DNA from: Chloroflexota bacterium
GTDB taxonomy: Bacteria; Chloroflexota; Dehalococcoidia; Lucifugimonadales; JADFKI01
Direction: 5' to 3'
Assembly: GCA_027623195.1 (NCBI GenBank)
Contig: JAQBUT010000005.1
Coordinates: 31,464-95,463, forward strand
Length of the DNA stretch: 64,000 nt
Positions 4,412-37,630 of the stretch are shown piece by piece. The position numbers were made by a program, and so were the translations under genes. Positions within the stretch are counted from its first letter, which is position 1; every line of letters starts with the position of its first letter. The notes beneath the pieces are model-generated. The model was not told where the DNA came from, did not search any database, and was given only the letters and a program-made list of their open reading frames with translations.

Positions 4412-5513
4412 CTAATCAGAGCCCACCGTAGACGTAAGGTAGGCCCTCATGAAGTCATCCAGGTCGCCATCCAGGACGCCATCAGCGTCTGAAGTCTCAA
4501 AGTTAGTGCGGTGGTCCTTGACCATCCTGTAGGGCTGAAGCACGTAACTCCGTATCTGGTTGCCCCACTCAGGCGAAATGTGGTCGCCCTTGATCTTCGC
4601 CATAGCCTTGGCCTTTTCTGCCAACTCCCTCTCCACCAGTCTGCCCATAAGGATCCGCATAGCGAATTCCTTATTCTGGTGCTGGGAGCGTTCATTCTGG
4701 CAGCTAACCTTGATGCCCGTGGGCAGGTGAGTTATACGCACGGCAGTAGAGTTCTTCTGAACGCTCTGCCCTCCGGCGCCGCCCGCCCTGAATACATCTA
4801 TCTTCAGGTCGTCGGAGTTAATAACGAGGTCCGTTCCCTCCTCCACCTCAGGCATCACCTCTATCAAGGCAAATGAGGTATGGCGGGCATGATCAGAGTC
4901 GAAGGGGGACAGCCTTACCAGGCGGTGAACTCCCCTTTCGGCCTGCAGATATCCATAGGCGAACTGGCCTGATATTTGAACGATAGCGCTCTTGATCCCA
5001 GCCTCTTCACCTACTGAGACTTCCAGTAATTCGCCCTTGAAGCCACGTCTCTCAGCCCAACGCATGTACATCCTCACCAACATGCTGGCCCAGTCTTGAG
5101 ATTCGACACCGCCAGCTCCCGCGTGAATGGCCATAATGACATTCCGCTCGTCGTAGGGACCAGAAAGCACCAGCTTGAACTCAAGCTCAGCCAGTCTTTC
5201 TTGTACCTCCACCAACTCTTGAGAAAAGCTTTCCAGAAGGGAGTTATCCTTCTCTTCGATGGATAGAGTTAGCAACTCATGCAGGGAAGAGGCTTTATCA
5301 TCCAGGCTCCTCCAGGATTCCACCTCTTCCTTTAACCCCGAGAGCCTTCTCATCTTGTGCTGTGCCTTCGCTGACAATTCCCAGAATGAGGGCTCAGAGG
5401 CCTCTTTTTCCAGAGCCTCTATCTCTTTTTCCTTAGAAGGAAGGTCAAAGACGCACCATAAAACCGGCTATCTGGTCTCTGACTTCAGATGTCGGCCCCT
5501 TTATCTCCTGCAT
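4412..5513 (-). CDS. prfB: Peptide chain release factor 2, with programmed +1 frameshift
   Basis: SPF tripeptide (RLSPFD) and GGQ (GGAGGQ) are present. A 22-codon frame-0 leader (MQEIKGPTSEVRDQIAGFMVRL) ends at CTT TGA C (5450-5444). The +1 frame continues DLPSKEKEIEALEKE... into the 321-aa ORF, about 366 aa in total. GAGGGGG SD lies upstream of the ATG at 5513. Confidence 0.9.
5444..5450 (-). promoter_or_regulatory. RF2 autoregulatory +1 frameshift site CTT TGA C
   Basis: The minus strand reads ...ATG GTG CGT CTT TGA CCT TCC... The in-frame TGA is followed by C, and the +1 frame is open down to 4412. Confidence 0.85.
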
Positions 5514-6744: not shown

Positions 6745-8313
6745 ATGTTGGATATTCTTATCAAGAACGGCCTGATAATCGACGGCACCGGCAATCCGGG
6801 TTACTACGGCGCGGTGGGGGTCCAGGACAACGTGGTGAGCGTAATTCGTGGCTCGCTGGACAGCGTTGAGGCAAGTCGAGTTATTGATGCCACAGACCAT
6901 GTGGTCTGCCCAGGCTTCATAGACATGCACTCCCACGCAGGGCTGGTCATCTTGTCCGAGCCGGAGCATCACCCCAAGGTGCGACAGGGCATCACGACAG
7001 AGCTTATCGGCGTTGACGGCAACTCCTACGCACCATTCCGCTCCCACGACGATTTTCTGGCCTTCGTTGAGGTAAATTCGGGTCTGGATGGGAACCCGCC
7101 GCTGCCCGGACAGTGGTCCACGGTGGAGCAGTACCTGGAGATGTTCGACCGCAAGACGGCTGTGAATATCGCATACATCCTGGGCAACTCGCCTGTGCGC
7201 ATTAACGCCATGGGATGGGAAGACAAGTCGGCCACGGCATCAGACCTGGCCAACATGAAGGCGATAATCAGAGAGGCCATGGAGGAGGGCGCATTCGGTC
7301 TCTCCACGGGCCTGGAGTACCCGCCGGGCAACTACGCCGACACCGACGAACTGGTAGAGCTATCCAAATACGTCGCCGACCTGGGCGGTTTTTACCACAC
7401 CCACGTGCGCTACAAGGATGGCGACCGCTTCCTGGACCCATTCAATGAGGCCCTTGAGATCGGGACGCGGAGCGGCATACCTGTGCATATCACGCACTTC
7501 TTCCAGTCGGTCCCTATCCGCGGCGGAGGACGCCGGATGCTTCAGCTAGTGGAGGACGCGTCAGCCTCCGGTCAGGACGTTACCTTCGACAGCTACCCAT
7601 ACATCCTGGGAAGCACCCGCATCACCATTGTGTTCCCTGACTGGACCCACGACGGCGGCCCGGCCAAGCTTAAAGCGGTCATGCGCTCCGAAGACGGACG
7701 AGCCCGCCTCCGCCAAGAGGTCGTAGCTCGGGCGGCGTCGTGGAGCGACATGTGGCTAACGTACTTTAAACAGCCGCAGAACCACCAGTACGAGGGCCTG
7801 TCCGTTGCCGAGATATCCAGCATGCGCAACCAGCACCCGGTCGACGCCCTTTGCGATTTGCTGCTGGAGGAGGACTTGCAGACCTGTTACGTAGCGGCAG
7901 GGTCCAACGGCAACACCCTACCCGCCTTTGTAACCCACCCGCTTTCTATGGTTGGCAGCGACGCCGTGCTGGTTGGCGACTTTCCAAGTCCCCGTACCTA
8001 CGGCTGCTTCCCAGTGATCCTGGCGGAGTACGTGAGAGAAGAGCAGCAGATGTCCCTGCCCAACGCCATTCGCAAGATGACGTCGTTTCCGGCGCAGCGC
8101 CTGGGAATCCACGACCGTGGGATCTTGCGGAACGGCATGAAGGCCGACATAACGGTTTTCCACCCCAAGAACGTGCATACCCCGGCCACGCGAGCCAACC
8201 CCAAGCAGTTCCCCATCGGCATAGAGTACGTTATCGTAAACGGCACCATTGTCATCGACGGCGGCGAGCACACGGGGGTGCTACCAGGCCACGCGCTGAA
8301 GCATCGGGCGTAG
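6745..8313 (+). CDS. N-acyl-D-amino-acid deacylase family amidohydrolase
   Basis: 522 aa. N-terminus MLDILIKNGLIIDGTGNP, metal-binding DMHSHAG, and overall D-aminoacylase-like length and organisation. Confidence 0.8.
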   Translation: MLDILIKNGLIIDGTGNPGYYGAVGVQDNVVSVIRGSLDSVEASRVIDATDHVVCPGFIDMHSHAGLVILSEPEHHPKVRQGITTELIGVDGNSYAPFRSHDDFLAFVEVNSGLDGNPPLPGQWSTVEQYLEMFDRKTAVNIAYILGNSPVRINAMGWEDKSATASDLANMKAIIREAMEEGAFGLSTGLEYPPGNYADTDELVELSKYVADLGGFYHTHVRYKDGDRFLDPFNEALEIGTRSGIPVHITHFFQSVPIRGGGRRMLQLVEDASASGQDVTFDSYPYILGSTRITIVFPDWTHDGGPAKLKAVMRSEDGRARLRQEVVARAASWSDMWLTYFKQPQNHQYEGLSVAEISSMRNQHPVDALCDLLLEEDLQTCYVAAGSNGNTLPAFVTHPLSMVGSDAVLVGDFPSPRTYGCFPVILAEYVREEQQMSLPNAIRKMTSFPAQRLGIHDRGILRNGMKADITVFHPKNVHTPATRANPKQFPIGIEYVIVNGTIVIDGGEHTGVLPGHALKHRA

Positions 8314-8319
8314 GTTAAG

Positions 8320-9450
8320 TCACGTTTGAATATTTAGAAAACTTCGAAACTCGGGACTTGCGACATAATCATTGAAACCATATGGGTACAGTTCGTGGAA
8401 TGGCGGAGGCACTCCAACTCCAATGGATCGAACTCCTCGTTGAAACCGCGAATACGCATCGCCGGTCGCACTTTCGCCTTTGCCAACTACCCGTACGAAG
8501 GACACTGCTGTCGGATGCAAAGTGGAATCAAGAAGCCCTAACAGGTCGTCATCCATCCCACTTGTACCCACTATATGAAATTTATGGCAGCTCTTCAAAA
8601 ACGAAGTCGCTGATGCCACGTGGGCGTCAGGTGCCACAATATCCGTTAAGCCTTTGCCCGCCAGCGGAGCCGTCAGCACAGGATAATACCTGCTGCCGTG
8701 TTGCAATAATCCTGCGACGGATTCGACGTTGTTTTGGATCAAAATGTTTTCTACAGACGTCCTGACTAATGGGTCGAAATCCATTACGACGTCGTTCCAG
8801 GTTCTCTTGTCTCCATTTATCATCTTTTTGAACCAGTTTACCGACCCATGCAGTTTGAGTATCGTCGCTCCACGAATCGGATTGATATAAGCATCCATTG
8901 AATTGAATACGAGATCGGCGTTACGGTCGTAATTGGTAAGTGCCGTTTCTAACAACGTGTCGTAATTAAGTACCAGGAATAGAACATCATGGGGAACTTC
9001 GGCCATCAATTCAGAGATCAGAACCTCGTAATTGCTTGGGGAATGAACGTAACTCGTGCTCGCGAGATGAATAAGGTCTCTTTGGTAACCAGGTACCTAC
9101 TTGAAGTTCTCGCGTGTTTGCGGGTTGCTGTGCTCGGACAATCTTCGTAATTCACTTTCCAGGCTAAATTCGCCTGACGACGATAATTTGAAAGCTAGAC
9201 CTTGGGCGATAAATGCGGCCCCTGGGTACCTCTATAGTACGTCCCAGTAATGACTTTTAAGGTGGATGTCTTGAAAGAGATCACGTGCCAATGGTGGCTG
9301 AAAGTTGTTGCTTCTCAGCGGCGCACCCGGCCCTGCCACGTCATGAGATGCGCCAGCTCCCAATATCACACATATCTTCGGTAAATCAGGCGTTTCAACA
9401 ACCATATGGTATTCCCCCCCTGCATGAAGGCAGTCTCCAATTCGTCCCAT
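8320..9450 (-). pseudogene. SIR2-like (SIR2_2 family) protein gene interrupted by two in-frame TAG codons
   Basis: One reading frame runs from 9450 to 8320 (9450, 9099 and 9009 are all congruent mod 3). It holds ILGAGAS, NYDTLLE, KLHGSVNW and VGTSGMDDD motifs. In-frame TAG at 9232-9234 and 9097-9099, with an open and plausible intervening 44-codon segment. Confidence 0.65.
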
Positions 9451-9578
9451 GGTGGGTTATAGGTAATTCTTGTTGAAGGAGCAATTTTAGTCAATCCGGC
9501 CGTTGACCACTCCCAAGGCATGCCTTAATCTGAAAACAGGTTAAGTCTGGCATATGAAGCTTCGGGAGGCAGGCCAAG

Positions 9579-11012
9579 TTGGCAAATAATCAGGGATCAC
9601 ATCCTCCAAGGCTCCCGCTTCGAGAGACGCTTGACGGTCTGCCACCAGAGTGGCCTCACGACCCTCTGCCGGATATCAGAGCCCTCATCAGCCAATCGGG
9701 CAAGAAGATTGTTGTGTTCGATGACGACCCCACTGGCACGCAGACGGTGCACGACGTGCCGGTGCTTACCGATTACAGCGTGGACGCCCTATGCCGGGAG
9801 ATGGCCGAGGACTTCCCTATATTCTACGTGCTCACGAACTCCCGGGGGCTGCCTGAAATCCCCGCCCGAAAGCTAAACGCCGCCATCGCCATGAACGTAG
9901 CCCAGGCTTCCCAACGCGCGCGCAAGGACTTCATTCTGGTAAGCCGCAGCGACTCAACGCTGCGGGGCCACTTCCCCGCCGAAACAGACTCCATAACTCA
10001 AGCCCTTGACCTGAAATACGACGGACTGGTTTTCACGCCGTTCTTCCTGGAGGGGGGCCGCTACACCATTAATAACGTCCACTACGTGGCAGAAGACGAA
10101 TGGCTGACGCCTGCTGGACAGACCGAGTTCGCACGGGACCCGGCGTTCTCCTTCCAGTCGTCGGACGTCCCCGGCTACATCCAGGAAAAGACCGGCGGAG
10201 CTATCAAAGCGGACGCAGTGACTATGATTTCCTTGGAAGACGTGCGGACCGGAGGACCGGACAGAGTTTCGGAAATACTGTCGCGTGTGAAAGGCCGGGC
10301 AGTCGTAGGCGTTAACGCTGTCAGCATGCGGGACATCGAGGTCTTCATGCTGGGCCTGCTGAAAACAGAGGGGAAGAAATTCATCTTTCGTACAGCAGCC
10401 TCCTTACTTAGGGCCATGCTGGGACAGGAAGGCAGGCCCCTTCTGACGGCATCGGAGATGGACGTCGGCAACGCGGGCGGCGGCCTGACCATCGTAGGCT
10501 CGTACGTTCCCAGGACTACCGGCCAGCTCAACCATCTGCTAGGCAACGGCGAGGTGAAGGGCGTCGAGATAAAAGTCGAGAGATTGCTGGAAGAATCGTG
10601 CCGTTCGGACGAGATTAGGCGGGTACGAGAGGAAATAAACGACCTGTTGCGCGATGGCAAGGATACGGTGGCCTTCACCAGCCGCGAACTGGTAAGCGGA
10701 AACTCTGCCGACGAAAGCCTGCATATTGGCAACACCGTATCGCAGGCGCTGGTGAAGATCGCCAGTTCGCTGGAGGCGCGTCCCAGATACCTTATTGCCA
10801 AGGGGGGCAATACCTGCAGCCAGATAGCCACCGAGGCCTTAGGCGTTCGTCGGGCATGGGCGCTAGGTCAGGTGTACCCCGGCGTACCCGTCTGGCGGCT
10901 AGGAGAAGAGTCTAAGTATCAGGACATGGCTTACGTGGTCTTCCCAGGCAACGTGGGTGGCGACGACGCCCTCACGAACGTCGTGAAAACATTGAGGTCC
11001 CCCCAGTGCTGA
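9579..11012 (+). CDS. Four-carbon acid sugar kinase family protein (DUF1537; OtnK/DtnK-like)
   Basis: N-terminal VVFDDDPTGTQTVHDVPVLT and FYVLTNSRGL motifs typical of DUF1537 kinases, 477 aa. TTG start with GGGAGG upstream. Confidence 0.8.
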   Translation: MANNQGSHPPRLPLRETLDGLPPEWPHDPLPDIRALISQSGKKIVVFDDDPTGTQTVHDVPVLTDYSVDALCREMAEDFPIFYVLTNSRGLPEIPARKLNAAIAMNVAQASQRARKDFILVSRSDSTLRGHFPAETDSITQALDLKYDGLVFTPFFLEGGRYTINNVHYVAEDEWLTPAGQTEFARDPAFSFQSSDVPGYIQEKTGGAIKADAVTMISLEDVRTGGPDRVSEILSRVKGRAVVGVNAVSMRDIEVFMLGLLKTEGKKFIFRTAASLLRAMLGQEGRPLLTASEMDVGNAGGGLTIVGSYVPRTTGQLNHLLGNGEVKGVEIKVERLLEESCRSDEIRRVREEINDLLRDGKDTVAFTSRELVSGNSADESLHIGNTVSQALVKIASSLEARPRYLIAKGGNTCSQIATEALGVRRAWALGQVYPGVPVWRLGEESKYQDMAYVVFPGNVGGDDALTNVVKTLRSPQC

Positions 11013-15930: not shown

Positions 15931-16797
15931 CTAAGACTGCGAATCGTACCAGTCCAGAATCTCCCCACCGGTCATCAGCAGCACGCCTTCGTGAGAGGTG
16001 ATGTACTCCAGCAGCTTTTCGAAATAGCCAATTCGATGCGGCACGCCCGTCACATAGGGATGCAGCGCTATACACATAATACGAGCAGACTCAGACCCTT
16101 CGCTGTAGAGCCTGTCGAACTGGTCCTTGCCCCTATCGAATATTTCTGACGACTTGTGGTGCTGTACGACATACATAGGAATGTCGTTCATTTCTACAGT
16201 GTAAGGAATGGAGACCATTCGCCCGGTCTTCACTTTCATTGGGACGGGCTGGTCATCCATAACCCAGTCGCAGATGTACTCGATGCCCGCTGCGGCCAAC
16301 AGGTCTGGCGTATCCGATGTCTCTGCAAGGCCGGGCCCCATCCATCCCCTGGGGGCTGTGCCTCCCGTTGCCTCCGTTATTGTGTCAACGGTCTTCCGTA
16401 TCACTGCCTCTTCGTCGTCCTCTAAAGGCAGGGCTCGCTGCAAGAAGCCATGGCCCATCATCTCCCAATTGGCGTCCAACATAGCCTTGAAGACCTCAGG
16501 ATAAGACAGGCAGACGGATGCGTTAAGGCTGACCGTGGCCCGCATGCGAATCCTGTCCAAAGCGGCCTTGATACGCCAGAAGCCCACGCGCATGCCGTAC
16601 TCATGCCAGCTATAGTTGGGAATGTCCGGCACAACGGACGCCCCTTGAGGCGTGGGAAGCACCTGACGCGCCATCTTGTCGTTGATGTTCCATTCCTCTA
16701 CGTTTACCACCACCCACAGCGCCAACCTGGCGCCGTTGGGCAGCTTCAGAGGCTTCCTGTCGTTAATTGCAGAGTAGTCTGCTCGAGGGTTGCTCAA
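15931..16797 (-). CDS. Polysaccharide deacetylase family protein (PuuE/allantoinase-like)
   Basis: 288 aa. LALWVVVNVEEW, HEYGMRVGFWR and MGHGF motifs resemble the NodB-fold PuuE-like subgroup. Confidence 0.65.
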   Translation of the reverse strand: MSNPRADYSAINDRKPLKLPNGARLALWVVVNVEEWNINDKMARQVLPTPQGASVVPDIPNYSWHEYGMRVGFWRIKAALDRIRMRATVSLNASVCLSYPEVFKAMLDANWEMMGHGFLQRALPLEDDEEAVIRKTVDTITEATGGTAPRGWMGPGLAETSDTPDLLAAAGIEYICDWVMDDQPVPMKVKTGRMVSIPYTVEMNDIPMYVVQHHKSSEIFDRGKDQFDRLYSEGSESARIMCIALHPYVTGVPHRIGYFEKLLEYITSHEGVLLMTGGEILDWYDSQS

Positions 16798-16815
16798 ATT
16801 AAATCTCCTGGCAGT

Positions 16816-17265
16816 TTAAGGCCTTTTTTGAGGCTCTATTCTCTCCCAAACCAGGGACAACGTCCACGTTACATCTCGGAATTGGGTGGGCAGGGACTCC
16901 AGCTTTAACTGGTTCCCGTCGAAGGTGAATATTCGAACCTGGTCCGAGTTTTCCCAATTGGGAAAGGAGCTAGCCTCCAACTGGTGGGTCACTATCTGCT
17001 TTTCATTATCTATGGCGTAGGTGCCGCAGTAGGCCATCATCTTATCCATGGCCCCCTTAGCCTCATCCGGGGTGCTCCGGGCCGGGTTATCGGAAGCGAA
17101 CTTTTCCCTGTCGGAAGCCGTGAGCAGGACGCCCAGGTTGCCGTCCGCGTCGTAAATGATCTTGCCGTAGGGTGCATCGCCGTAGGGCTGGGTAACGCGG
17201 CCGTCAGAGCATATGGCTTCGTATGATTTCAGGCTCCATCCCCCTATGAATCGTTCGTCCGTCAT
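16816..17265 (-). CDS. Lipocalin-like domain protein
   Basis: FIGGWSLKSYE...PYGDAPYGKIIYDADGNLGV...MAYCGTY pattern typical of Lipocalin_5-type domains, 149 aa. Confidence 0.5.
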   Translation of the reverse strand: MTDERFIGGWSLKSYEAICSDGRVTQPYGDAPYGKIIYDADGNLGVLLTASDREKFASDNPARSTPDEAKGAMDKMMAYCGTYAIDNEKQIVTHQLEASSFPNWENSDQVRIFTFDGNQLKLESLPTQFRDVTWTLSLVWERIEPQKRP

Positions 17266-17615
17266 GTTGAAAAATCATCCCCTTAGGTTGTTGCCGAGGC
17301 CGCTGACGATGCAGCGCTTCTGTTAGGTAGTTTGCGGGTGAACCTTACCAGAAATTGGCCTTCTAAGAAAGTGTCTCCATGGGATGAATGGGCAACGGAG
17401 CTACCCTTTGAGTGACCGCACCCACCCAATTTGAGAACAGGCTCGGGGAACTCACAATGAAAACACCCATGACCTATACGCGGTAATAAAGGGAGTATAG
17501 TCGGAACACACCAAACGCACACGCCGCGCTAGGAGAAAACGATTAACGCAGCGTCATGCCAGGGGATGGGTGGAAGATGATCGGAGACATGATGCCAAAT
17601 CAATTTGTCGCAAGC

Positions 17616-18764
17616 ATGAAAAAGTGGTACGCAGTGGGCGCAACGGGAACTTTGCTTCTTGCCGCCGCCTGCGGACCAATCAGCGCCCAGGACGCTCAGG
17701 GTGTGCTGGACACTGGACGCGAAATTCAAAGGCTTCAGCAGGAAGAGATAACCCCCAGGCTGGATGCCATTACCGAGCTCCAGCAGGAAATTGAGCCTCT
17801 TGAGACCCGACTCCGGGAGATCAAGAAAGAGTTCCGCGGGATTGAACGAGATTCAATCGGTCCTATGAAAGAGGATTTCAAGGAATCCAATTTCGGACCT
17901 GACCATGAGTTGATTCGCGAGCTTGAAGAAGAGATGCAGGCGCGTATGCACGCAATCGACGAAGAACAGCGCGAGTTGGATGGCCAACGACGTGATATAG
18001 AAACAGCCCTTCATAACGAGACCAGGGGCTTTGAGGAACAGTTCAAAGACGTTGAAAAAGATAAGTCTGATCGTATGAGGGAGATCGACGAAGAGCTTCG
18101 TTACCTGCACCAGGGAACAGAAGACGAAGTCCAGGATCTTTATTAGGACGCTGCGAAAATAGAAAACAAGATAAGCCGCACTGATTGGAACGATCCCGAC
18201 GACGCTCAGAAGGCAGAAGAGCTTGAAGACGAGTTGAAGGATATTCACGACCGTATTCAGGACATGGAAGACGAGAACCGTCGGAGAATCGAAGGGCTTG
18301 AGAATGAACACTACGCCTTGGATGAAAAGTCCTGGGACATGCAAAATAAAATGCAGTCCTTCTACGATGATCTAGAAGAACGAACGAGAGACGAGTTCGA
18401 CGCCATCGAAACCCGGCGAATGGAACTGGATGAGGAGCGCTGGGCCCTAGACGATGAGATGCGGCAGAAATTCGAAGAGGCCGAAGCGACCTTCAGGGAT
18501 CAAAAGCAAGAGCACAGGGAGCTTATAACGGCGGTTGTGGATGACCAACTGGGGCCTCTGGAGGAGGAAGCCCTGGACCTGGAGATGCAGCTCGAAGATC
18601 TTTACACTCGTGAGCATGCACTACAGCGTGAGCTGGCCGCTTTCAGCCAGGAGATTGCTCCGCTACGCCAGACCATGGAGTCATCTATGCTTGATCTGCT
18701 TGATTCGGCCATTCAGGCAGCGGAGAGCAACCCTATGATCTTCGCAGACGACTCAACCGATTAG
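17616..18764 (+). pseudogene. Highly charged coiled-coil lipoprotein gene with one in-frame TAG
   Basis: MKKWYAVGATGTLLLAAAC lipoprotein signal, then about 360 aa of E/D/R/K-rich heptad-like sequence. TAG at 18144-18146 is in frame (17556 and 18234 are congruent mod 3). The frame stays open across 18147-18233 (DAAKIENKISRTDWNDPDDAQKAEELEDE...). Confidence 0.55.
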
Positions 18765-18885: not shown

Positions 18886-19809
18886 CTAACCTAGACTAAT
18901 GCCATGCCCGCTGTAGTACCGGACTGAGCCCGAATGAATTGGCCCTCGTGGATTGGTAGCGGCGTTTGCGGGGTCAAAACCGTTGGCAGCAGGGTGAATG
19001 GCTGCAACGAGGTCTGGATTATCGCAAACAACACTGGTTATGGCGTGCGCCAGGTCCTCTGGCACCCCCGAATGAAATCCCAACGTCGTCCCCATGGAAA
19101 TAGTCGGCACTGGTTCCCGGACAATACCGTATGCTCCGGTGGTTATCTGGTCGGCGGCCCAGCCAAGAGTTTCCAGGTGTTGGACAAGGGTTTGTGGCAT
19201 ACCTAGCAGCTTGAGAGGCCTGGCGTCATTCGCCGCAGCCACAGACGGCGACGGCACCCCCATAAACTGCCAGAGCGCGTTCACCTCACCACTGCGGTAG
19301 AGTTCCAACTGCTGATCGTAGTTTGCCGCAGACACCAGCCGACATCCCCAGGACTCTACGTCCTCCTCGGACGCGCCCAAGTGCGCCAGCGCCAGCCGAA
19401 AGACTAGCCGATCCACCGTGCCTACGCGATCCACGGGGATACTCAGAACAGCCTTTTGAGTTATCCAGTCGTCCATGTATTGGAGAGACGAACCGGACTC
19501 CACCAACAGGTGCAGATAGTTCACCGTCAGGTTCGCGACGCCAGCGCGCAACTCGGGATATGGCCTGTCATAAGGGTCTCTGCCCTGCACCGCTGCGGCC
19601 GTCATAGGTGGGTTCAGAATGCCCATGGCGATCTCGCCGGAACCCACCAGGGCGTGGTTCATGACGCCGCCGCCCTCGACCACTTCGATTGTGATTTCAG
19701 GGTACATCTCGCCAACGAGCCGGGCGATGCCCTCCATGAGCACAAACCAACTCCCGCCCCTGCCGCCTGCAACCGCCTGCAATCTGACGATGCTTTTTGA
19801 TGTAGCCAA
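18886..19809 (-). CDS. TAXI/NMT1-like solute-binding-fold protein lacking a signal peptide
   Basis: GGRGGSWFVLMEGIARLV...GGGVMNHALVGSGEIAMG resembles TAXI-family TRAP receptors, but there is no N-terminal signal. TTG start directly abuts the upstream stop (TAG TTG). Confidence 0.5.
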   Translation of the reverse strand: MATSKSIVRLQAVAGGRGGSWFVLMEGIARLVGEMYPEITIEVVEGGGVMNHALVGSGEIAMGILNPPMTAAAVQGRDPYDRPYPELRAGVANLTVNYLHLLVESGSSLQYMDDWITQKAVLSIPVDRVGTVDRLVFRLALAHLGASEEDVESWGCRLVSAANYDQQLELYRSGEVNALWQFMGVPSPSVAAANDARPLKLLGMPQTLVQHLETLGWAADQITTGAYGIVREPVPTISMGTTLGFHSGVPEDLAHAITSVVCDNPDLVAAIHPAANGFDPANAATNPRGPIHSGSVRYYSGHGISLG

Positions 19810-20259
19810 CTAGGGACGAGGTCCGAAAGTGCGCGGAGGCGTGTCCGGGTACAGCGAGAGGTGGGTATGCACTGCCAGCCAACGACCATCGCGCTTTTCA
19901 AGGGCCACGGTGGCGCGGCCAGGCCTGTAGAAGGGTTCATGGGCGCCGTCGAACCCTATGGAGGTCCAGGTAACAATGCCCCAGGCGTGGTGTTCGTCAC
20001 CTCTGGCGTGCACGTTATCCAGGTCCATTTTGAAGTTCTTAATGTTGCCCCAGATGCCTTCCCACTGGTTTTTCCGAAGGTTATCGAGACCAGAGACGAG
20101 GTCCATCTTCGTGCCGAAGGACACCACGTCATCAGCAAATATGCTCTCCGCCGAGTCGTAGTCCACCGTTGAACAGCACTTCTCCAGGCTCGCGAACCAC
20201 TGTTCGGCGGCCTCCTGCGGGTTGTCCGTGGTTATGGGCTCAACGTTGGATTGCGTCAT
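19810..20259 (-). CDS. SnoaL-like / NTF2-fold protein
   Basis: 149-aa core from the ATG at 20259 (MTQSNVEPI...). The W/F/D pattern and length are typical of DUF4440/SnoaL-like proteins. The longer ORF to 20442 overlaps the upstream gene and is Arg/Ser/Thr-rich junk. Confidence 0.5.
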   Translation of the reverse strand: MTQSNVEPITTDNPQEAAEQWFASLEKCCSTVDYDSAESIFADDVVSFGTKMDLVSGLDNLRKNQWEGIWGNIKNFKMDLDNVHARGDEHHAWGIVTWTSIGFDGAHEPFYRPGRATVALEKRDGRWLAVHTHLSLYPDTPPRTFGPRP

Positions 20260-20296
20260 GTCGGTCTTGCTCCTGACGATAAATGGCGAATAACGC

Positions 20297-21976
20297 TTAT
20301 CTGCCGCGTGGCGTAGGAGCGGCCTCCGGGAAGTGCTCCTGCACAGGTATCTCGATGACGCTGGGGCCGTTGTGGGCCAACGCCTCGCTGACGGCGTCGC
20401 CGATGTCTGAAGCGTTCTCGACGTAGTAGCCCTTTGCGCCATAGACCTCCGCCAGCTTGTCGAACCGAGGGTTAATCAGATCTACGCCAACGTAATGCTC
20501 ATCGTGCAAACGCTTCTGCTGGGCCTTCTCTGCTCCGTGGCAGCCGTTGTTAAGAACAATGCTCACGAGAGGTATGTTCCAGCGCACGGCCGTGTTGATC
20601 TCCTGCGAGGTGTACAGGAATCCGCCGTCGCCCTGGATGCTGATGGCGGGACGATCAGGACGACCCAGTTTGGTGCCAAGACCGACGCCGTAGCCCATAC
20701 CCAACGCGCCCTGCCCTGCGTAATTGAACATCGTGCGCGGCAGGTCGAAGCTAAGCCGGTCATAGGCCAGGCCCGGCGACACACCAGCGTCGATGGTCAC
20801 CATGCAATCCCTGGGCAATACCCGGTTCAGCTCGGGGTAGACCTGTTGAGGCATCATAGGGTTCTCGGAGATGCTTTTCTCCGCGTCCAACCTGGCACGA
20901 CGGCTCCGCGCGAGGCCCTGGTATTCGGACTTCCATTCAGGTCGGGCCTTTCCTTCCGGAAGCTGGCTCCGCAGGGCGTCAAGGAGTTGCTGCCCAACGG
21001 CTTTAGCGTCTCCAACGATTCCTCCAGCCACAGGGTAGTTTCGTCCTATCTCAATAGGATCAATATCTATCTGAATTATCTTGGTATCCGGATTGATGAT
21101 GCTATAGTTCCACGACGTTGATGCCTGGTTAATGCGAGTCCCAAAGGCCAGAATAACGTCTGCGCGATTCATGGCCAGATGGGCCTCTCCCGAACCCCTG
21201 CCACCGGGAGGTCCTACGTAATTGGGGTGGCTGTTGGGCACGGCATCGTGATGGCCGTAAGACGGCACCATCGCCATATCCAGAAGCTCAGATAGCGCAA
21301 CCGCCTCGTCGCTAGCCTCAGAGTCCACTACGCCGCCGCCTGCCAGCAGCAAGGGCCGTTCAGCATCCATGAGAAGCCGCACAGCCTGCCTAACTGCCTC
21401 GGCATCGCCTTGAGCCCTGGCTGCTACCGGTCTATAGGCATCTGGCCTCAAGAAATCGTCAGAGATGGTCTTGTTGTCGACAAGGTCTCTCGGGAAGTCC
21501 AGCATCACCGGACCCTGCTTGCCCGAAAGCGCCGTTCGGAAGGCCTCTCTTATGAGGTGCGGCAAGCGCTCCGTCTTGTTTGCCTGCACCGCCATCTTGG
21601 TGACGGGTTTGAAGATGTTCACCAGTTCGAAGGCCTGTGCGCCGTCCCGCCCGATGTACTCCTCCGCCGTGTCCCCTGCGATGACGATGATGGGGGCCCT
21701 GCCCTTGTATGCCAGCGAGATGCCGGTAAGGAGGTTGATGGTACCCGGTCCAGACGTGGTCATGCACGCCACCGGCTTACCTGACGCCTTGGCGTAGCCG
21801 TATGCCATTAACGCCGCACCCTCTTCATGACGGGAGTCGATAAACTTGATGTCCTCGCGACCGTAGGTCTCCGTTACCATGCTGTTGGTGGTCAGGCCCG
21901 TCACACCAAAGATGTACTCGACACCCTCGGCTCTGAGCAACTCAAGTACGGCCTTCCCGGCTTTCATCTCTGCCAT
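20297..21976 (-). CDS. Thiamine pyrophosphate-dependent enzyme (acetolactate synthase large-subunit-like)
   Basis: 559 aa. N-terminal TPP-PYR domain (GVEYIFGVTG...), central domain, and C-terminal TPP-binding GDGGFLY...NN motif. Confidence 0.85.
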   Translation of the reverse strand: MAEMKAGKAVLELLRAEGVEYIFGVTGLTTNSMVTETYGREDIKFIDSRHEEGAALMAYGYAKASGKPVACMTTSGPGTINLLTGISLAYKGRAPIIVIAGDTAEEYIGRDGAQAFELVNIFKPVTKMAVQANKTERLPHLIREAFRTALSGKQGPVMLDFPRDLVDNKTISDDFLRPDAYRPVAARAQGDAEAVRQAVRLLMDAERPLLLAGGGVVDSEASDEAVALSELLDMAMVPSYGHHDAVPNSHPNYVGPPGGRGSGEAHLAMNRADVILAFGTRINQASTSWNYSIINPDTKIIQIDIDPIEIGRNYPVAGGIVGDAKAVGQQLLDALRSQLPEGKARPEWKSEYQGLARSRRARLDAEKSISENPMMPQQVYPELNRVLPRDCMVTIDAGVSPGLAYDRLSFDLPRTMFNYAGQGALGMGYGVGLGTKLGRPDRPAISIQGDGGFLYTSQEINTAVRWNIPLVSIVLNNGCHGAEKAQQKRLHDEHYVGVDLINPRFDKLAEVYGAKGYYVENASDIGDAVSEALAHNGPSVIEIPVQEHFPEAAPTPRGR

Positions 21977-33217: not shown

Positions 33218-35245
33218 CTAATTAGAGTCGGAGGCCAGGACCGCCAGCCTGTCGGTCGTCTGCCCGGAAGCGACATCGCTATCCAGACGGAATGCTGCCA
33301 CTGCCCCTTGGAGAACTCGCGTCATAGCGTCCAGCTCCTGAGTCGATGCCACTACTTCTTCGACCTGGGCGCTCATCTCCTCAGCAGATGCGCTCATCTC
33401 TTCGGTAGCAGCGCTGTTTTCCTCTGAAACTGCAGTGATGCTCTCGATGGCCTTGGAGACTTCAGTGCTATTGGCGGCCATTTCTTCGCTTGCCGCGCTG
33501 TTTTCTTCAGTTATGGCGCTTACTTCGCCCATGGTCTTCACCATGTCGGCGCTGGAGGCAGTGACCTGCTCGGCTGATGCGGAGATCTGCTCGATCTGAT
33601 TTCCGACACCCTCAACAGATTCCATGATATTGGCCAGAGCCTTGCCTGCCTCTTCGGCAAGCTTGACGCCCTCGGCCACTTCCTGGGTTCCGTCCTCAGC
33701 TGCCTTTATGGACTCCGCTACGCCCTTCTGGATGTTATCTATGAGGCCAGCGATTTCCTTGGTTGCGTCGGTGACTCGCTCTGCCAGGCCCCTAACTTCG
33801 TCGGCCACAACCGCGAATCCTCGACCCTGCTCACCCGCTCGCGCCGCCTCGATTGCTGCGTTTAAGGCCAGAAGGTTGGTCTGAGCCGCAATGTCGTCGA
33901 TGACGGCGACGATCTTGCCTATCTCCTCGGACTGTGCGCCCAACTGGGTGATCTGATTAGAAGCCTCAGCCATTGCCGAGCTGATCTTGCCCATGCCGAC
34001 GATGGTCTGATTTACCATTTCGCCGCCGTTCCGGGCCGCTTCGCTGGTCTGGCGTGAACCAATTGCAGCCTCCTGCGCACTTCGAGCAACTTCACTGATG
34101 GCCGTGGACACCTGGTCTACGACGCTGGAGGCTTGCTCTACGCCCTGGGCTTGCTCCTGGCTACCCTTGGCTATCTGTTCTATTGCGGCAGAGAGCTGCT
34201 GCATGGACTGGGTAGTCGCCTGGATGCTCTCGGTCTGCTGACTGGTTCCCATGGCCACCTGCTGACTCACCTGGGTAATACCTGTGGTGGCCTGACCTGC
34301 CTGGTCGGCAGCACTGGCTAACTGTGAGCTCGCCGCTGCCAAACCAGTGGCAGTGCTCCTTACCTGACCGATAATCTCCATAAGGTTGTCGACCATCTGA
34401 TTGGTGTTGCCGCCCATGTCCACCACCTCGTCAATCATCTTGTTAAAGGCAGTGGCCATGTCACCTATTTCGTCTTTGGATTTAACTTGCACATGTTCCA
34501 TTTGGACGTCGGCTTTCACAGTTAGGTTGCCATCGGCCACTTCCCTTGTTACCCGTGACAGGGCTGGCAACAGTCGTTCTGCCAGTTCAGTGGCAGCATC
34601 GCCGACACTACGCACGCCATTGGATATGCTCCGAGACAGCAGGAATCCCATAACCATGGCGACGACTGCAGCGAGTACCGAAATGACGATTATGAGTGTG
34701 ATTGCTGTCTGCTCGGTGGACTCAGCAGCGGCGAAGGATTCTTCCATTTCCAGCTCTATGAGGTGGACGAGCTCTGCAAGCTCCACCTCCATCTCCTCTT
34801 CCTCAGCGACCATGATGTGAAGGGAGTTCAGTCCGCCTGCCGCGTCGCCTGCCCTATACAAGCTTGCGAGGAGTTCACCCGCTATAATGAACTCTTCGTA
34901 CTGGTCCTCAACTAGGAAGAGCAAATCCAGAGCTTCGTCGTTGCCTCGCAACTGGTCCTCCAGCTGTGCGGACTCTTCATGAATCAGGTCCGTCTGATGC
35001 CTGGCTTGTTCAAGGACGGCCTCGTCCAGGGTCAGGGCGTACTCGAAGTAAAACTCGGTCTGGAGGGCAAGCTGCAATTCCAGATCCTTAGCCTCCTCGA
35101 CTTGGGGCAGCGACTCGTGCACTATGTGGTCTGCGGCGGCTCCCATAGAATTAAGGCCGTTCCAGCTTACGCCGAAGACCACCAGCAGCATGGCAACTAC
35201 TACTAAGAAGCCGCCAATCAATTTCGCTCTAATATTCAACTTCAT
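33218..35245 (-). CDS. Methyl-accepting chemotaxis protein (TM - helical periplasmic sensor - TM - HAMP - MA domain)
   Basis: Highly conserved signalling hairpin [34 protein letters not shown]. Two TM segments flank an acidic ~150-aa sensor region. AGGAGGAG SD upstream. Confidence 0.9.
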
Positions 35246-35281
35246 GACTCGGTCACTCCTCCTATTTGTGTGGGTGTATTT

Positions 35282-37042
35282 TTAGAATTCCCCAATGGTC
35301 CGGCTATTCAACGGCTGAACTGGCCGTGCGTTGCCTCCGAATATCGACATGAACTTATCCATCTGGGCCTTGGAGGCCTGTACCGGCTCCTGTACTACGA
35401 ACCACTTAACGCCTTCCGAACACGGGGGGGTGGTAAGCGAACCATCGAACGCGAAGTATTGAGCCTCGCTAGGGAGGATGTCCGTAATGCTGATTCTAAG
35501 GTCCGAAGCTACGTTGCCCTCTTCTCTGGGAAGGAAGTCCCAGAACTTGGCGAAGAGAGGGTTCTCCTCGCCGCTTTCGAATAGCACGCCGATGACGCCA
35601 AGACCGCCCCCGGCGTTCTTGTGGACCAGGTGCATTTCCATGGGGTACCTGCCGCCGTCCACGGAGTTTTCGCTAGGTGTATGGAAATGGAACTGCAGAA
35701 GGTCGTACTCTCCACCGTCCAGGTAGGCCACGCTGCCTGAATCGTAGTTAATCTGGATTGTGTGGCCGTTGTTAAGAATTGTTACGACCGTATCGCCGTA
35801 GTTAGTGAAGACGGAATTATCGGCGCCGACTGTAAATCTCGAGTCGATGTCAATTGGAGATTGCTCCACCCCGGTCTTGCAGGCGATGTAGTCGTCGGCC
35901 AGGTCTCCCCAGTAATTCGGGCCCGAATTGCCCTCGTAGGTCCAGTGAGGAGGGCCATCACCATGATCACCATTGCTAACCGTGGTGTCTCCGTGGTCAG
36001 GAGCGACCCCATGGGCATCGCCAGTGCTCCCGCCGGAAATGAGTCTTGCATGCAGAGGCTGCACCGGGCGATTGTTGTGCCCCAATATTCCGTTGAAAGC
36101 CGAGATCTGATCCCCGGACATCTCGATTGGGGTGCTCATGACGTTCCAGTTCACGCCTTCGCTGCATGGCGGCGTGGTGAGGGAACCGGAGTATGTATAG
36201 ATCTCCCTGTCGTGAGGTAGCATGGACTCGACGTTTACGTTGACGCCATGAACCTCTTTTACCTCACCTGCGCCGTGAGGCAGGTTTGCAACAAGCGACT
36301 GGAAGAAGGGGTTGGAATGACCCTCTTCGATGAATACGCCAACTACGGCCAGTTCGCCGCTCGCGCTCTTATGTACCAGGTGTCCCTCCATAGGGTAGTT
36401 CTGGGAGCTAACCTGATGCTCAGAAGGCGTATGGAAGTGGAACTGAAGCAGCTCGTACTGCTCGTGGTCGATGACTATCGAGCTGCCGGGCGCGTAATTC
36501 ACCTGCAAAGTGTGGCCGTTGTTCAGGATGCTCAACGGCACGTCGTTGTAGTTGAATTGAATGCTCGCTGGCTGGGCAAAGGCCGAGCCGGCAATGTCAA
36601 TTGGCGACTGGCTGGTGCCCGCCTTGCAGGCGATGAACTCGTCTGCCAGGTCTCCCCATTTGCTCGGACCGAGGTCTCCCTCGTAGGCCCAGTGGGGCGC
36701 GGCGCTGCCATGATCCGTGCTGGCAGGAGCGGCATGGCCCGTAGCAGGTGCTGCATGGTCTGTACTGGCTGGTGCAGCATGGCCCGTAGCGGGAGCGGCA
36801 TGGCTGTCGGCGGGAGCAGCGTGATCCGTGCTGGCAGGTGCAGCATGTGTATCTGAGGTCGCGACGCGCGACACCCTGGTCCTAGTCCTGGCACCGCTTT
36901 CCGCATCGCTGCTATCGGCAGCAGAAGCGGAAGTGCCACAGCCCGAAAGGACTAACAAAAGGGCAAATGCCAGCGCCGATAAAGCGATGGCATACCCTTT
37001 GCCCTTAAAAAGGGCCGTTCTAAGGTTTTGATCACTGATCAT
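35282..37042 (-). CDS. Lipoprotein with two tandem alpha-class carbonic anhydrase domains
   Basis: Lipobox VLSGC. Two copies of the alpha-CA signature set: HW(A/T)YEG, QSPIDI, LLQFHFHTPSE, HLVH and GSLTTPPCSEGV. All three Zn-ligand His residues are conserved in both domains. Confidence 0.85.
   Translation of the reverse strand: MISDQNLRTALFKGKGYAIALSALAFALLLVLSGCGTSASAADSSDAESGARTRTRVSRVATSDTHAAPASTDHAAPADSHAAPATGHAAPASTDHAAPATGHAAPASTDHGSAAPHWAYEGDLGPSKWGDLADEFIACKAGTSQSPIDIAGSAFAQPASIQFNYNDVPLSILNNGHTLQVNYAPGSSIVIDHEQYELLQFHFHTPSEHQVSSQNYPMEGHLVHKSASGELAVVGVFIEEGHSNPFFQSLVANLPHGAGEVKEVHGVNVNVESMLPHDREIYTYSGSLTTPPCSEGVNWNVMSTPIEMSGDQISAFNGILGHNNRPVQPLHARLISGGSTGDAHGVAPDHGDTTVSNGDHGDGPPHWTYEGNSGPNYWGDLADDYIACKTGVEQSPIDIDSRFTVGADNSVFTNYGDTVVTILNNGHTIQINYDSGSVAYLDGGEYDLLQFHFHTPSENSVDGGRYPMEMHLVHKNAGGGLGVIGVLFESGEENPLFAKFWDFLPREEGNVASDLRISITDILPSEAQYFAFDGSLTTPPCSEGVKWFVVQEPVQASKAQMDKFMSIFGGNARPVQPLNSRTIGEF
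36710..36847 (-). repeat. Coding tandem repeat HAAPA(S/T/D)(T/G/S)(D) x6 in the CA N-terminal linker
   Basis: Protein reads THAAPASTDHAAPADSHAAPATGHAAPASTDHAAPATGHAAPASTDHGSAAPHW. The DNA shows the reiterated unit GTGATCCGTGCTGGCAGG.GC.GCATG. Confidence 0.8.
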
Positions 37043-37630
37043 GATTCACCTCTAGCATAGTTTTGTTCTTCAAAGGTCGGATTCTGCTCGACACTCAGAA
37101 TCAGGTAAAAGCTATATTTAAGGTCCCTCGGCTTATCCGAAGGCCACGAACATGCCAACTAATTTCAATCGCTATGAAAAGTCGTTGCATTTTTTTGACG
37201 ATGTAGTCTCATATAAACGACAGAAACCGTCATAAACGTGATATCTGTACTTGTATGGGAGACTAACGGCTGAGGCTATTACCTATTTCTGCGCGAGGGG
37301 ACGGCGGCGGTGACATTTCCCGCCGGGCACCGACTCAAGGGTCCTGGGCATAGGCTGGAGGCACTTAATGGGTTTCACTGAGTGCGCGACAAGGCCTTTT
37401 CCCATCCGAATCTCAGTCTGGCCTGAAGGGGCTGTGGGCGCGACTTAAATCCGTTGAGCAATTCACAAATGCTTCCTACACGGAGGAAGTCGTTCTCGGA
37501 TTTACCAGACCTAGAACGTCTCGTCAGGAAATTGACACCAGTCCAGAGCGGGTGCTACGGTCTCCGCATCCTACACGTGCTTTCAGACGTCAGAACAATG
37601 CACATGGAATATCGATCAGAGGGAGAGTTC

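Follow-up and report, generated by a model that had tools for sequence, protein, structure and literature searches.

Results

Organisation of the locus

In the window, i.e., the whole stretch of 64 kb from a Chloroflexota bacterium that was analysed, a SIR2-like gene lies on the minus strand between two genes of the plus strand. The features of the locus are listed below; L001-L005 are contigs of a sister strain, L015-L018 are loci of relatives that lack the insertion and P0001 is the closest intact homolog.

6745..8313, plus strand: left flank, D-aminoacylase gene (Amidohydro_3); its TAG end lies six bases from the stop of the SIR2 gene, and its last codons were altered by the insertion
8305..9487, no strand: inserted low-GC segment of about 1.18 kb, 47.8% GC; empty site in L015-L018; boundaries placed within about 8 bp
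8320..9405, minus strand: probable pseudogene of the SIR2_2 family, 361 codons from ATG 9405-9403 to TGA 8322-8320, as indicated by the translation, PF13289 and collinear homologs
8320..9009, minus strand: residual C-terminal ORF, 229 aa from TTG or 228 aa from ATG, without the GAGAS NAD-binding loop
9097..9099, minus strand: premature amber 2; CAG (Gln) in the closest intact homolog, column mostly His/Tyr/Gln in the family; present in L001-L005
9232..9234, minus strand: premature amber 1; TCG (Ser) in the closest intact homolog, column variable in the family; present in L001-L005
9414..9420, minus strand: G7 homopolymer upstream of the likely start; G6 in the sister strain
9579..11012, plus strand: right flank, sugar-acid kinase-type gene (SBD_N/NBD_C), 96 bp after the aminoacylase in the insert-free relatives

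According to the translation of the window, the SIR2-like gene is read in a single minus-strand frame that runs from 9450 to the terminal TGA at 8322-8320. The original prediction held that this frame is broken only by the two TAG codons, without any frameshift, and that the three resulting segments form one protein. Both statements were confirmed: in an alignment of 22 sequences the three segments were collinear with intact homologs of approximately 350 aa, and the best homolog (E 2.3e-160, coverage 96%) extended across all three of them. The 44 codons between the stops, which had been described as still resembling a coding sequence, aligned as well as the remainder of the gene. The motifs GAGAS, NYD..LE, KLHGS and GTSG.DDD that had been pointed out are present and occupy columns that are invariant or nearly so in the alignments of 22 and 50 sequences; GAG.S, N-Y-D and H-G-S are invariant in the 50 family members. 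The assignment to the SIR2_2 type was also upheld by a match of the stop-masked protein to PF13289 (30.4 bits against a gathering score of 24.5, E 4.9e-7).

The predicted length of 376 aa, which was counted from the ATG at 9450, could be retained only in part; the frame was correct but the start probably was not, as the homologs begin at M16 of that translation, which would give a protein of 361 aa. The most likely start is ATG 9405-9403, because it is there that the N-termini of the homologs align, and the gene of the closest homolog has its own start at the corresponding codon. The ATG at 9450 probably over-extends the protein; the G7 allele keeps it in frame, and the G6 of the sister strain puts it out of frame. 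Gene callers report the residual C-terminal ORF, which bears the name "SIR2 family protein" in GenBank (MDA1226993.1 / MDA0770213.1; P0141, P0142); in two NCBI MAGs, only the 228-aa C-terminal piece is annotated, under the same name.

An inserted single gene

The comparison with relatives showed that the SIR2 gene is an insertion. In the alignment with the empty site, the homology with the window stops at about 8305 and resumes at 9488. The insert contains the SIR2 gene alone with about 80 bp upstream of it, and replaces about 18 bp, the last codons of the aminoacylase included. A D-aminoacylase of the same cluster (at least 90% identity) was found in 24 contigs that were read; the empty site is displayed in four places, with 20 similar ones collapsed, in which the kinase gene follows the aminoacylase after 96 bp, a SIR2 gene is missing and the gene order of the window is kept. 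The insert also differs from its neighbours in composition, with 47.8% GC and a GC3 of 49% against 59-60% GC and a GC3 of 71-77%. The best explanation for the locus appears to be that the insertion is recent and that the gene was acquired horizontally.

The view that this is an orphan gene between unrelated metabolic genes agrees with the identity of its neighbours, the D-aminoacylase and the sugar-acid kinase. No integrase or transposase adjoins the insert, and a scan for promoters and terminators produced hits that were no more numerous than in shuffled sequence. A perfect 10-nt direct repeat, AGGTTAAGTC, at 8312-8321 and 9538-9547 was considered as a target-site duplication and was not accepted, because chance alone would produce about 0.8 repeats of this kind and the right copy falls about 50 bp within the stretch that is homologous to the empty site.

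Distribution of the premature stops

Both TAG codons were found in five of five contigs (L001-L005), each of which had been assembled separately from its own sequencing run. Over 2.1-3.9 kb, these contigs share 99.3% identity with the window, and their flanking genes are the same; fixed differences mark them as a distinguishable sister strain, with 22-35 differences each when the flanks are counted. Population variants, which the original prediction had proposed as a check on the stops, are provided by these sister-strain contigs and share both TAGs with the window. A further locus, L039, was rejected as an independent allele because it matches the window with 100% identity over 20.5 kb.

No intact allele of the SIR2 insertion occurred among the sampled copies, and no full-length protein more than 71% identical to the gene was detected in a collection of 5.8 billion proteins. 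This collection does contain the C-terminal ORF itself, both in its exact form and as a variant with 98% identity (P0002), the latter being the one that L001-L005 carry. When the metagenome and genome collections were scanned for an exact 29-mer from between the two stops, no match was returned, and a protein-based scan of the metagenome contigs returned neither a relative nor further alleles.

Origin of the stops and the adjacent GGTACC sites

A codon-level alignment was made against the gene of P0001 (71% identity, locus L006). It answered the question of which residues occupy the stop positions in homologs, as this gene has TCG (Ser) at the first position and CAG (Gln) at the second, and each TAG is a single base change from the respective codon. 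Most simply, TCG and CAG would also have been the ancestral codons, as judged from a homolog that is only 71% identical. Each amber codon is accompanied by a GGTACC hexamer:

9225..9230, no strand: GGTACC after amber 1, in the codons AGG TAC CCA (Arg-Tyr-Pro); AGG TAT CCG in P0001, which has no site
9092..9097, no strand: GGTACC overlapping amber 2, in TAG GTA CCT (stop-Val-Pro); CAG GTG CCT in P0001, which has no site

The presence of GGTACC beside both ambers (9230-9225 and 9097-9092), to which the original prediction had drawn attention, was thus correctly reported, but its significance was not sustained, as there is no enrichment and the two sites sit in different codon phases. The window contains 15 GGTACC sites compared with about 19 expected per strand, and a TAG that is followed by GGTACC within 0-2 nt occurs twice on both strands compared with 2.2 expected from the composition. 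A role of GGTACC as a signal or a mutational hotspot was rejected on account of this lack of enrichment, the different phases and the missing sites in P0001; a hotspot is further contradicted by the mutations that are inferred, C to A and C to T, which lie at different distances from the hexamer. We treat the shared context as a coincidence that is probably a by-product of codon choice. As a curiosity, the only two occurrences of TAG with GGTACC in the window are the two ambers themselves. The local string TAG(A)GGTACC(C)WGG, which the two ambers have in common, comes without a mechanistic explanation and was counted against the pseudogene account given in the Discussion.

Selective constraint on the interrupted gene

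The window and the sister strain were compared in the SIR2 gene and in four flanking genes:

SIR2 gene: 7 non-synonymous and 1 synonymous codons; dN 0.0097, dS 0.0077; dN/dS 1.27
Four flanking genes: 10 non-synonymous and 12 synonymous codons; dN 0.0028, dS 0.0099; dN/dS 0.28

While dS was similar in the SIR2 gene and in the flanks, dN was approximately 3.5-fold higher in the SIR2 gene. The probability of at least seven non-synonymous changes among eight was 0.019 at the proportion of the flanks and 0.39 under neutrality, and a two-sided Fisher test of the gene against the flanks gave p = 0.09, these statistics resting on eight changed codons. The comparison shows that purifying selection is relaxed in the SIR2 gene. 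The replacements in the sister strain include Phe to Ser at a Phe that is invariant in 50 family members, Leu to Arg within KLHGS and Ile to Met in the CVILGAGAS strand; the window allele has Leu to Gln in the conserved YLRDL motif. Because the replacements in each lineage are not benign, both lineages thus appear to be decaying independently after the two stops had been acquired in common. The window copy violates 3 of the 79 columns that are conserved at 90% or more, and the intact members violate between 0 and 10 of them; the inactivation would therefore be recent. This aligns well with the recent inactivation that was originally proposed, as no sampled copy lacks either stop, one substitution suffices to turn the corresponding codon of the nearest homolog into TAG and the gene has behaved as neutral since.

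Use of TAG in the window and a further interrupted gene

The 86 long stop-to-stop ORFs of the window end in TAG in 35 cases, in TGA in 26 and in TAA in 25. Among the genes that are terminated by TAG are those for the D-aminoacylase, an aldolase, EPSP synthase, a solute-binding protein and RF2. Neither a tRNA-CUA nor another suppressor tRNA was found in the 64-kb window, the sole tRNA of which is a tRNA-Pro(GGG). These data show that TAG works as a normal stop within the window; genome-wide recoding of TAG was rejected on the stop-codon usage of the window.

An in-frame TAG was also found in one other gene:

17556-18764: gene for a coiled-coil protein, probably a lipoprotein; in-frame TAG at 18144-18146

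Only two homologs of this gene were found; both are uninterrupted, have 390-395 aa, share 65-66% identity with it and carry Asp or Glu at the column of the TAG. One of them, P0144, has a syntenic context, and the other, P0143, comes from a 1.3-kb contig. Genes split by TGA or TAA were looked for in the window and none was detected. Three further ORF pairs were considered as candidates for split genes, namely 19813-20475 / 18889-19809 (TAG), 16819-17274 / 15934-16815 (TAA) and 35285-37045 / 33221-35281 (TAA); all were rejected as separate genes with complete, unrelated Pfam domains.

The SIR2_2 family and its predicted fold

In the collection of 5.8 billion proteins, 371 relatives were found at E <= 0.001, and most of the best 120 of these 371 have about 350 aa and cover more than 90% of the query. 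Among the matches listed, most homologs carry a precomputed PF13289 match, and the relatives come mainly from Dehalococcoidia/Chloroflexota MAGs, with a few from Gammaproteobacteria and Patescibacteria and one from a Bathyarchaeota MAG. In long contigs, the genes of the family lie among unrelated housekeeping genes, in one case beside an IS element. An all-against-all comparison of the neighbours at 19 loci revealed no conserved partner gene, yielding only generic families and duplicate genomes.

The family was also surveyed for damage at 20 loci of species-representative genomes. An in-frame deletion of about 75 aa was found in L030, a frameshift in L031, the loss of the 3' third of the gene in L032 and a remnant with a stop in L037; the family is thus disrupted in at least four other genomes and is prone to loss. 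Another frameshift, in L033, may be an assembly error, as its protein (P0115) occurs in intact form in other assemblies.

The AlphaFold2 model of P0001 had a pLDDT of 92.9 and a pTM of 0.92, and its best matches in the PDB were the SIR2 subunits of SIR2-HerA (Nezha), followed by classical sirtuins. The profile matches to the sequences of solved structures, to the PADLOC models and to the NCBIfam Dsr2 model were weak and limited to the NYD...HGS catalytic stretch; those of ThsA, DSR1/DSR2 and pAgo-SIR2 took in 50-100 residues around this core. It is established that SIR2 proteins can act as NADases, and it is on this knowledge that the predicted NAD+ consumption of the family draws; by analogy in fold and in the conserved Asn/Asp/His residues, the family members are predicted to be NAD+-consuming enzymes.

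Discussion

In this study, we analysed an interrupted SIR2-like gene, which we consider, with high confidence, to be a young unitary pseudogene of a horizontally acquired stand-alone SIR2_2 gene that was inactivated by two point mutations and has been neutral since. According to this account, a single-gene cassette for a stand-alone SIR2_2 protein of about 360 aa would have been acquired horizontally and, in one sublineage of an uncultured population of Chloroflexota, inserted between the D-aminoacylase and the sugar-acid kinase genes. The common ancestor of the sampled carriers would have undergone two independent nonsense mutations of one base each, in the simplest case TCG to TAG and CAG to TAG, and the SIR2 gene would have evolved neutrally since its inactivation. 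Two nonsense mutations that are accompanied by few other damaging changes somewhat exceed what simple drift predicts, and we count this against the account.

Several alternatives have to be weighed against it. The stops could be an artefact of sequencing, assembly or consensus building and be absent from the real genome, a suspicion that is nourished by the source being a metagenome-assembled genome and by L039, whose identity with the window means that it adds no independent observation. However, both TAGs occur in five contigs of a distinguishable sister strain, each from a run of its own, and it is implausible that substitution errors would yield the same two codons in independent assemblies. 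Because both TAGs are carried by five independently assembled contigs, an assembly or consensus error can be excluded and both stops are real; the probability that we leave to an artefact is negligible. A gene with genuine stops might still be functional if both UAGs were read through by a suppressor tRNA, by pyrrolysine or by context-dependent readthrough, which would throttle a putative toxic NADase. It fits this idea that each of the three premature stops detected in the window, two in the SIR2 gene and one at 18144-18146, is a TAG and that split genes with TAA or TGA at the break were not detected. However, three of three ambers is statistically unremarkable because 43 of the 125 single-base changes that give a stop in the repaired SIR2 gene lead to TAG, and TAG is the commonest ordinary terminator in the window, the adjacent convergent gene included, while a suppressor tRNA is absent from it. 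Similarly, the SIR2 frame is otherwise intact and the window allele keeps all family-invariant residues, which speaks for a maintained function, but the dN/dS of about 1.3 speaks against it, as do the replacements that both lineages have undergone since the stops at invariant residues and in motifs. A similar downstream string is common to both ambers, yet no special residue is implied at either of them, the first column being variable and the second H/Y/Q. Conditional expression through suppression, which the original prediction regarded as conceivable, is not supported by these observations, and we regard readthrough of the gene as highly improbable. It would be equally surprising if the lineage as such tolerated or exploited low-level amber suppression, with the SIR2 gene and the gene at 17556-18764 being expressed at a reduced or conditional level. 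If this were true, it would explain why every premature stop in the 64-kb window is TAG, and in the SIR2 gene amber suppression would hold down the translation of a potentially toxic NADase.

The remaining alternative concerns the cause of the loss. The putative NADase may have been harmful in a host that lacked its restraint, so that the first stop was selected and the second possibly ended leaky readthrough; such an adaptive loss is a variant of the pseudogene account and differs from it only in cause. Two stops in a gene in which 3 of 79 conserved columns are violated, a number inside the intact range, hint at selection for a knock-out, given that a stop results from only about 3.8% of the single-base changes that are possible in the repaired gene. 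The repeated breakage of the family in other genomes and the fold of P0001, which is nearest to abortive-infection SIR2 NADases, point in the same direction. On the other hand, most of the sampled family members are intact, single and partner-less, so that an unaccompanied copy is evidently tolerated, and small numbers cannot separate selection from drift. We consider an adaptive loss possible but rather doubtful.

With the unitary pseudogene as the preferred reading, the C-terminal ORF of 228/229 aa that is named "SIR2 family protein" should rather be annotated as what is left of a pseudogene of 361 codons. The locus is also a clean, datable example of a gain that was followed by a loss, as the samples comprise the site without the insert, the allele with it and two dead alleles that are diverging. 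The main interest lies with the intact family of several hundred members, which is uncharacterised; it may merit a test as a candidate for a single-gene NADase or defence system because of its partner-less members of about 350 aa, a confident fold that is nearest to the SIR2-HerA effector and its frequent decay.

Comparison with known systems

The closest counterparts of the gene are the stand-alone PF13289 proteins of Dehalococcoidia/Chloroflexota; it aligns collinearly with them along about 350 aa, with an identity of 37-71%, and shares the invariant motifs GAG.S, NYD, HGS, TAPL..K and G.SG.D.D. These proteins are annotated as "SIR2 family protein" or "hypothetical protein" and are encoded by single genes with no conserved neighbour. 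Unlike these intact relatives, the window copy has two premature TAGs and lineage-specific replacements at conserved residues.

The original prediction also placed the gene among the defence-type SIR2 proteins, for which an HMM search of the conceptually repaired protein had been proposed; PF13289 was recovered above its gathering score, whereas the PADLOC models gave only weak, partial matches. The label "defence-type" is therefore a weak one that is suggested by a fold-level resemblance of the model and by such partial HMM matches. The resemblance is greatest to SIR2-HerA (Nezha; PDB 8wld, 8sub, 8w9l and 8j4u), to which the P0001 model matched with a Foldseek E of 1e-7 to 1e-5 and a probability of 1.0. 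The likeness to these chains is modest, with a TM of 0.44-0.54 and 14-18% identity, and the best profile-sequence match, to 8w9l (E 0.0011), covers the catalytic stretch; a gene for a HerA ATPase was found neither beside the window gene nor at any of the 19 homolog loci. For Thoeris, the ThsA models matched over only about 50 residues (E 8e-5), and the window protein has no SLOG/STALD domain and no neighbour encoding a TIR-domain ThsB. DSR1 and DSR2 have approximately 1000-1200 aa with a C-terminal sensor region compared with the 361 aa of the window protein, which scored 12.6 bits with NF041819 against a cut-off of 1400 and matched the PADLOC Dsr2 model over 51 residues. The matches to Aga_SIR2 of pAgo-SIR2 (SPARSA) were weak and partial (E 7e-5 to 8e-9, about 80 residues), and there is no Argonaute or APAZ neighbour. 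The family thus has a defence-type SIR2 fold and lacks the features by which Thoeris, DSR1/2, SIR2-HerA and pAgo-SIR2 are defined.

The locus also differs from known cases of pyrrolysine or amber recoding. Such a system would avoid TAG as a terminator, whereas in the window TAG ends more ORFs than any other stop codon, and pylTSBCD and a tRNA-CUA would be expected, of which the tRNA-CUA is absent from the window. A further close counterpart is provided by the unitary pseudogenes of horizontally acquired accessory or defence genes of bacteria. They show the same low-GC, single-gene insertion that is absent from close relatives, the same inactivation by point mutations, a dN/dS of about 1 and homology that is still recognisable. 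Nothing substantive distinguishes the SIR2 copy from them, and its sole peculiarities are that both of its lesions are amber codons and that both precede GGTACC.

Recurrent decay of the SIR2_2 family

The decay of the SIR2_2 family is recurrent across genomes, and damaged copies were found at the following loci from other assemblies.

Damaged SIR2_2-family copies in other genomes
L030:4010-4813, in-frame deletion of ~75 aa
L031:4010-5061, frameshift
L032:4001-4654, 3' truncation
L037:4001-4375, short remnant with a stop

The copy in L033 also carries a frameshift, but this may be an assembly error because other assemblies have this protein in intact form.

Surroundings of the SIR2 pseudogene and of its intact homologs

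Directly 5' of the likely start of the SIR2 pseudogene, at the position of a ribosome-binding site, lies a homopolymer (9414-9420) that is G7 in the window vs G6 in all five independently assembled contigs of the sister strain. The gene is bracketed by a perfect 10-nt direct repeat, AGGTTAAGTC (8312-8321 and 9538-9547), for which the chance expectation is about one. Its right copy lies ~50 bp within the sequence that is common to the empty site, i.e., the junction without the SIR2 gene in close relatives, where the corresponding stretch reads AGGATCAGTC.

In a Dehalococcoidales MAG, a baeRF_family10/eRF1-like (acVLRF1) gene is convergent with an intact SIR2 homolog and is followed by MutS2-Smr (L013:7195-7941, L014:1928-2674). 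This pairing is probably coincidental, since it was found in none of the other loci that were compared. In the case of the Dehalococcoidia homolog P0007, the SIR2 gene is followed on the same strand by a hypothetical gene of 194-205 aa in two independent contigs (L007:7122-7706, L008:1294-1911). A Pfam search of this gene gave no match and it was not found adjoining other members of the SIR2_2 family; it could be a lineage-specific partner.

Other genes in the window

Three further genes of the window show notable features.

Further features of the window
17556-18764, + strand, coiled-coil, probably lipoprotein, gene with an in-frame TAG at 18144-18146, annotated as two ORFs
35285-37045, - strand, 587-aa ORF with two stretches matching eukaryotic-type (alpha) carbonic anhydrase
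4412-5513, - strand, release-factor gene with PCRF and RF-1 domains and a frameshift site at 5450-5444

The only homologs of the coiled-coil gene, P0143 and P0144 (390-395 aa, 65-66% identity), are uninterrupted and have Asp/Glu in the stop column, and P0144 is syntenic in the contig L040. Either this second gene of the window with an in-frame amber is a further pseudogene, or it hints that the lineage tolerates such codons.

The 587-aa ORF may encode a tandem-domain carbonic anhydrase; a methyl-accepting chemotaxis protein gene (33221-35281) lies directly downstream and in frame with it.

The N-terminus of the release factor is encoded in a short upstream ORF that ends in ...CGT CTT TGA C. 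This sequence, at 5450-5444, is the site of programmed +1 frameshifting that is classical for prfB (RF2), a known and expected feature.
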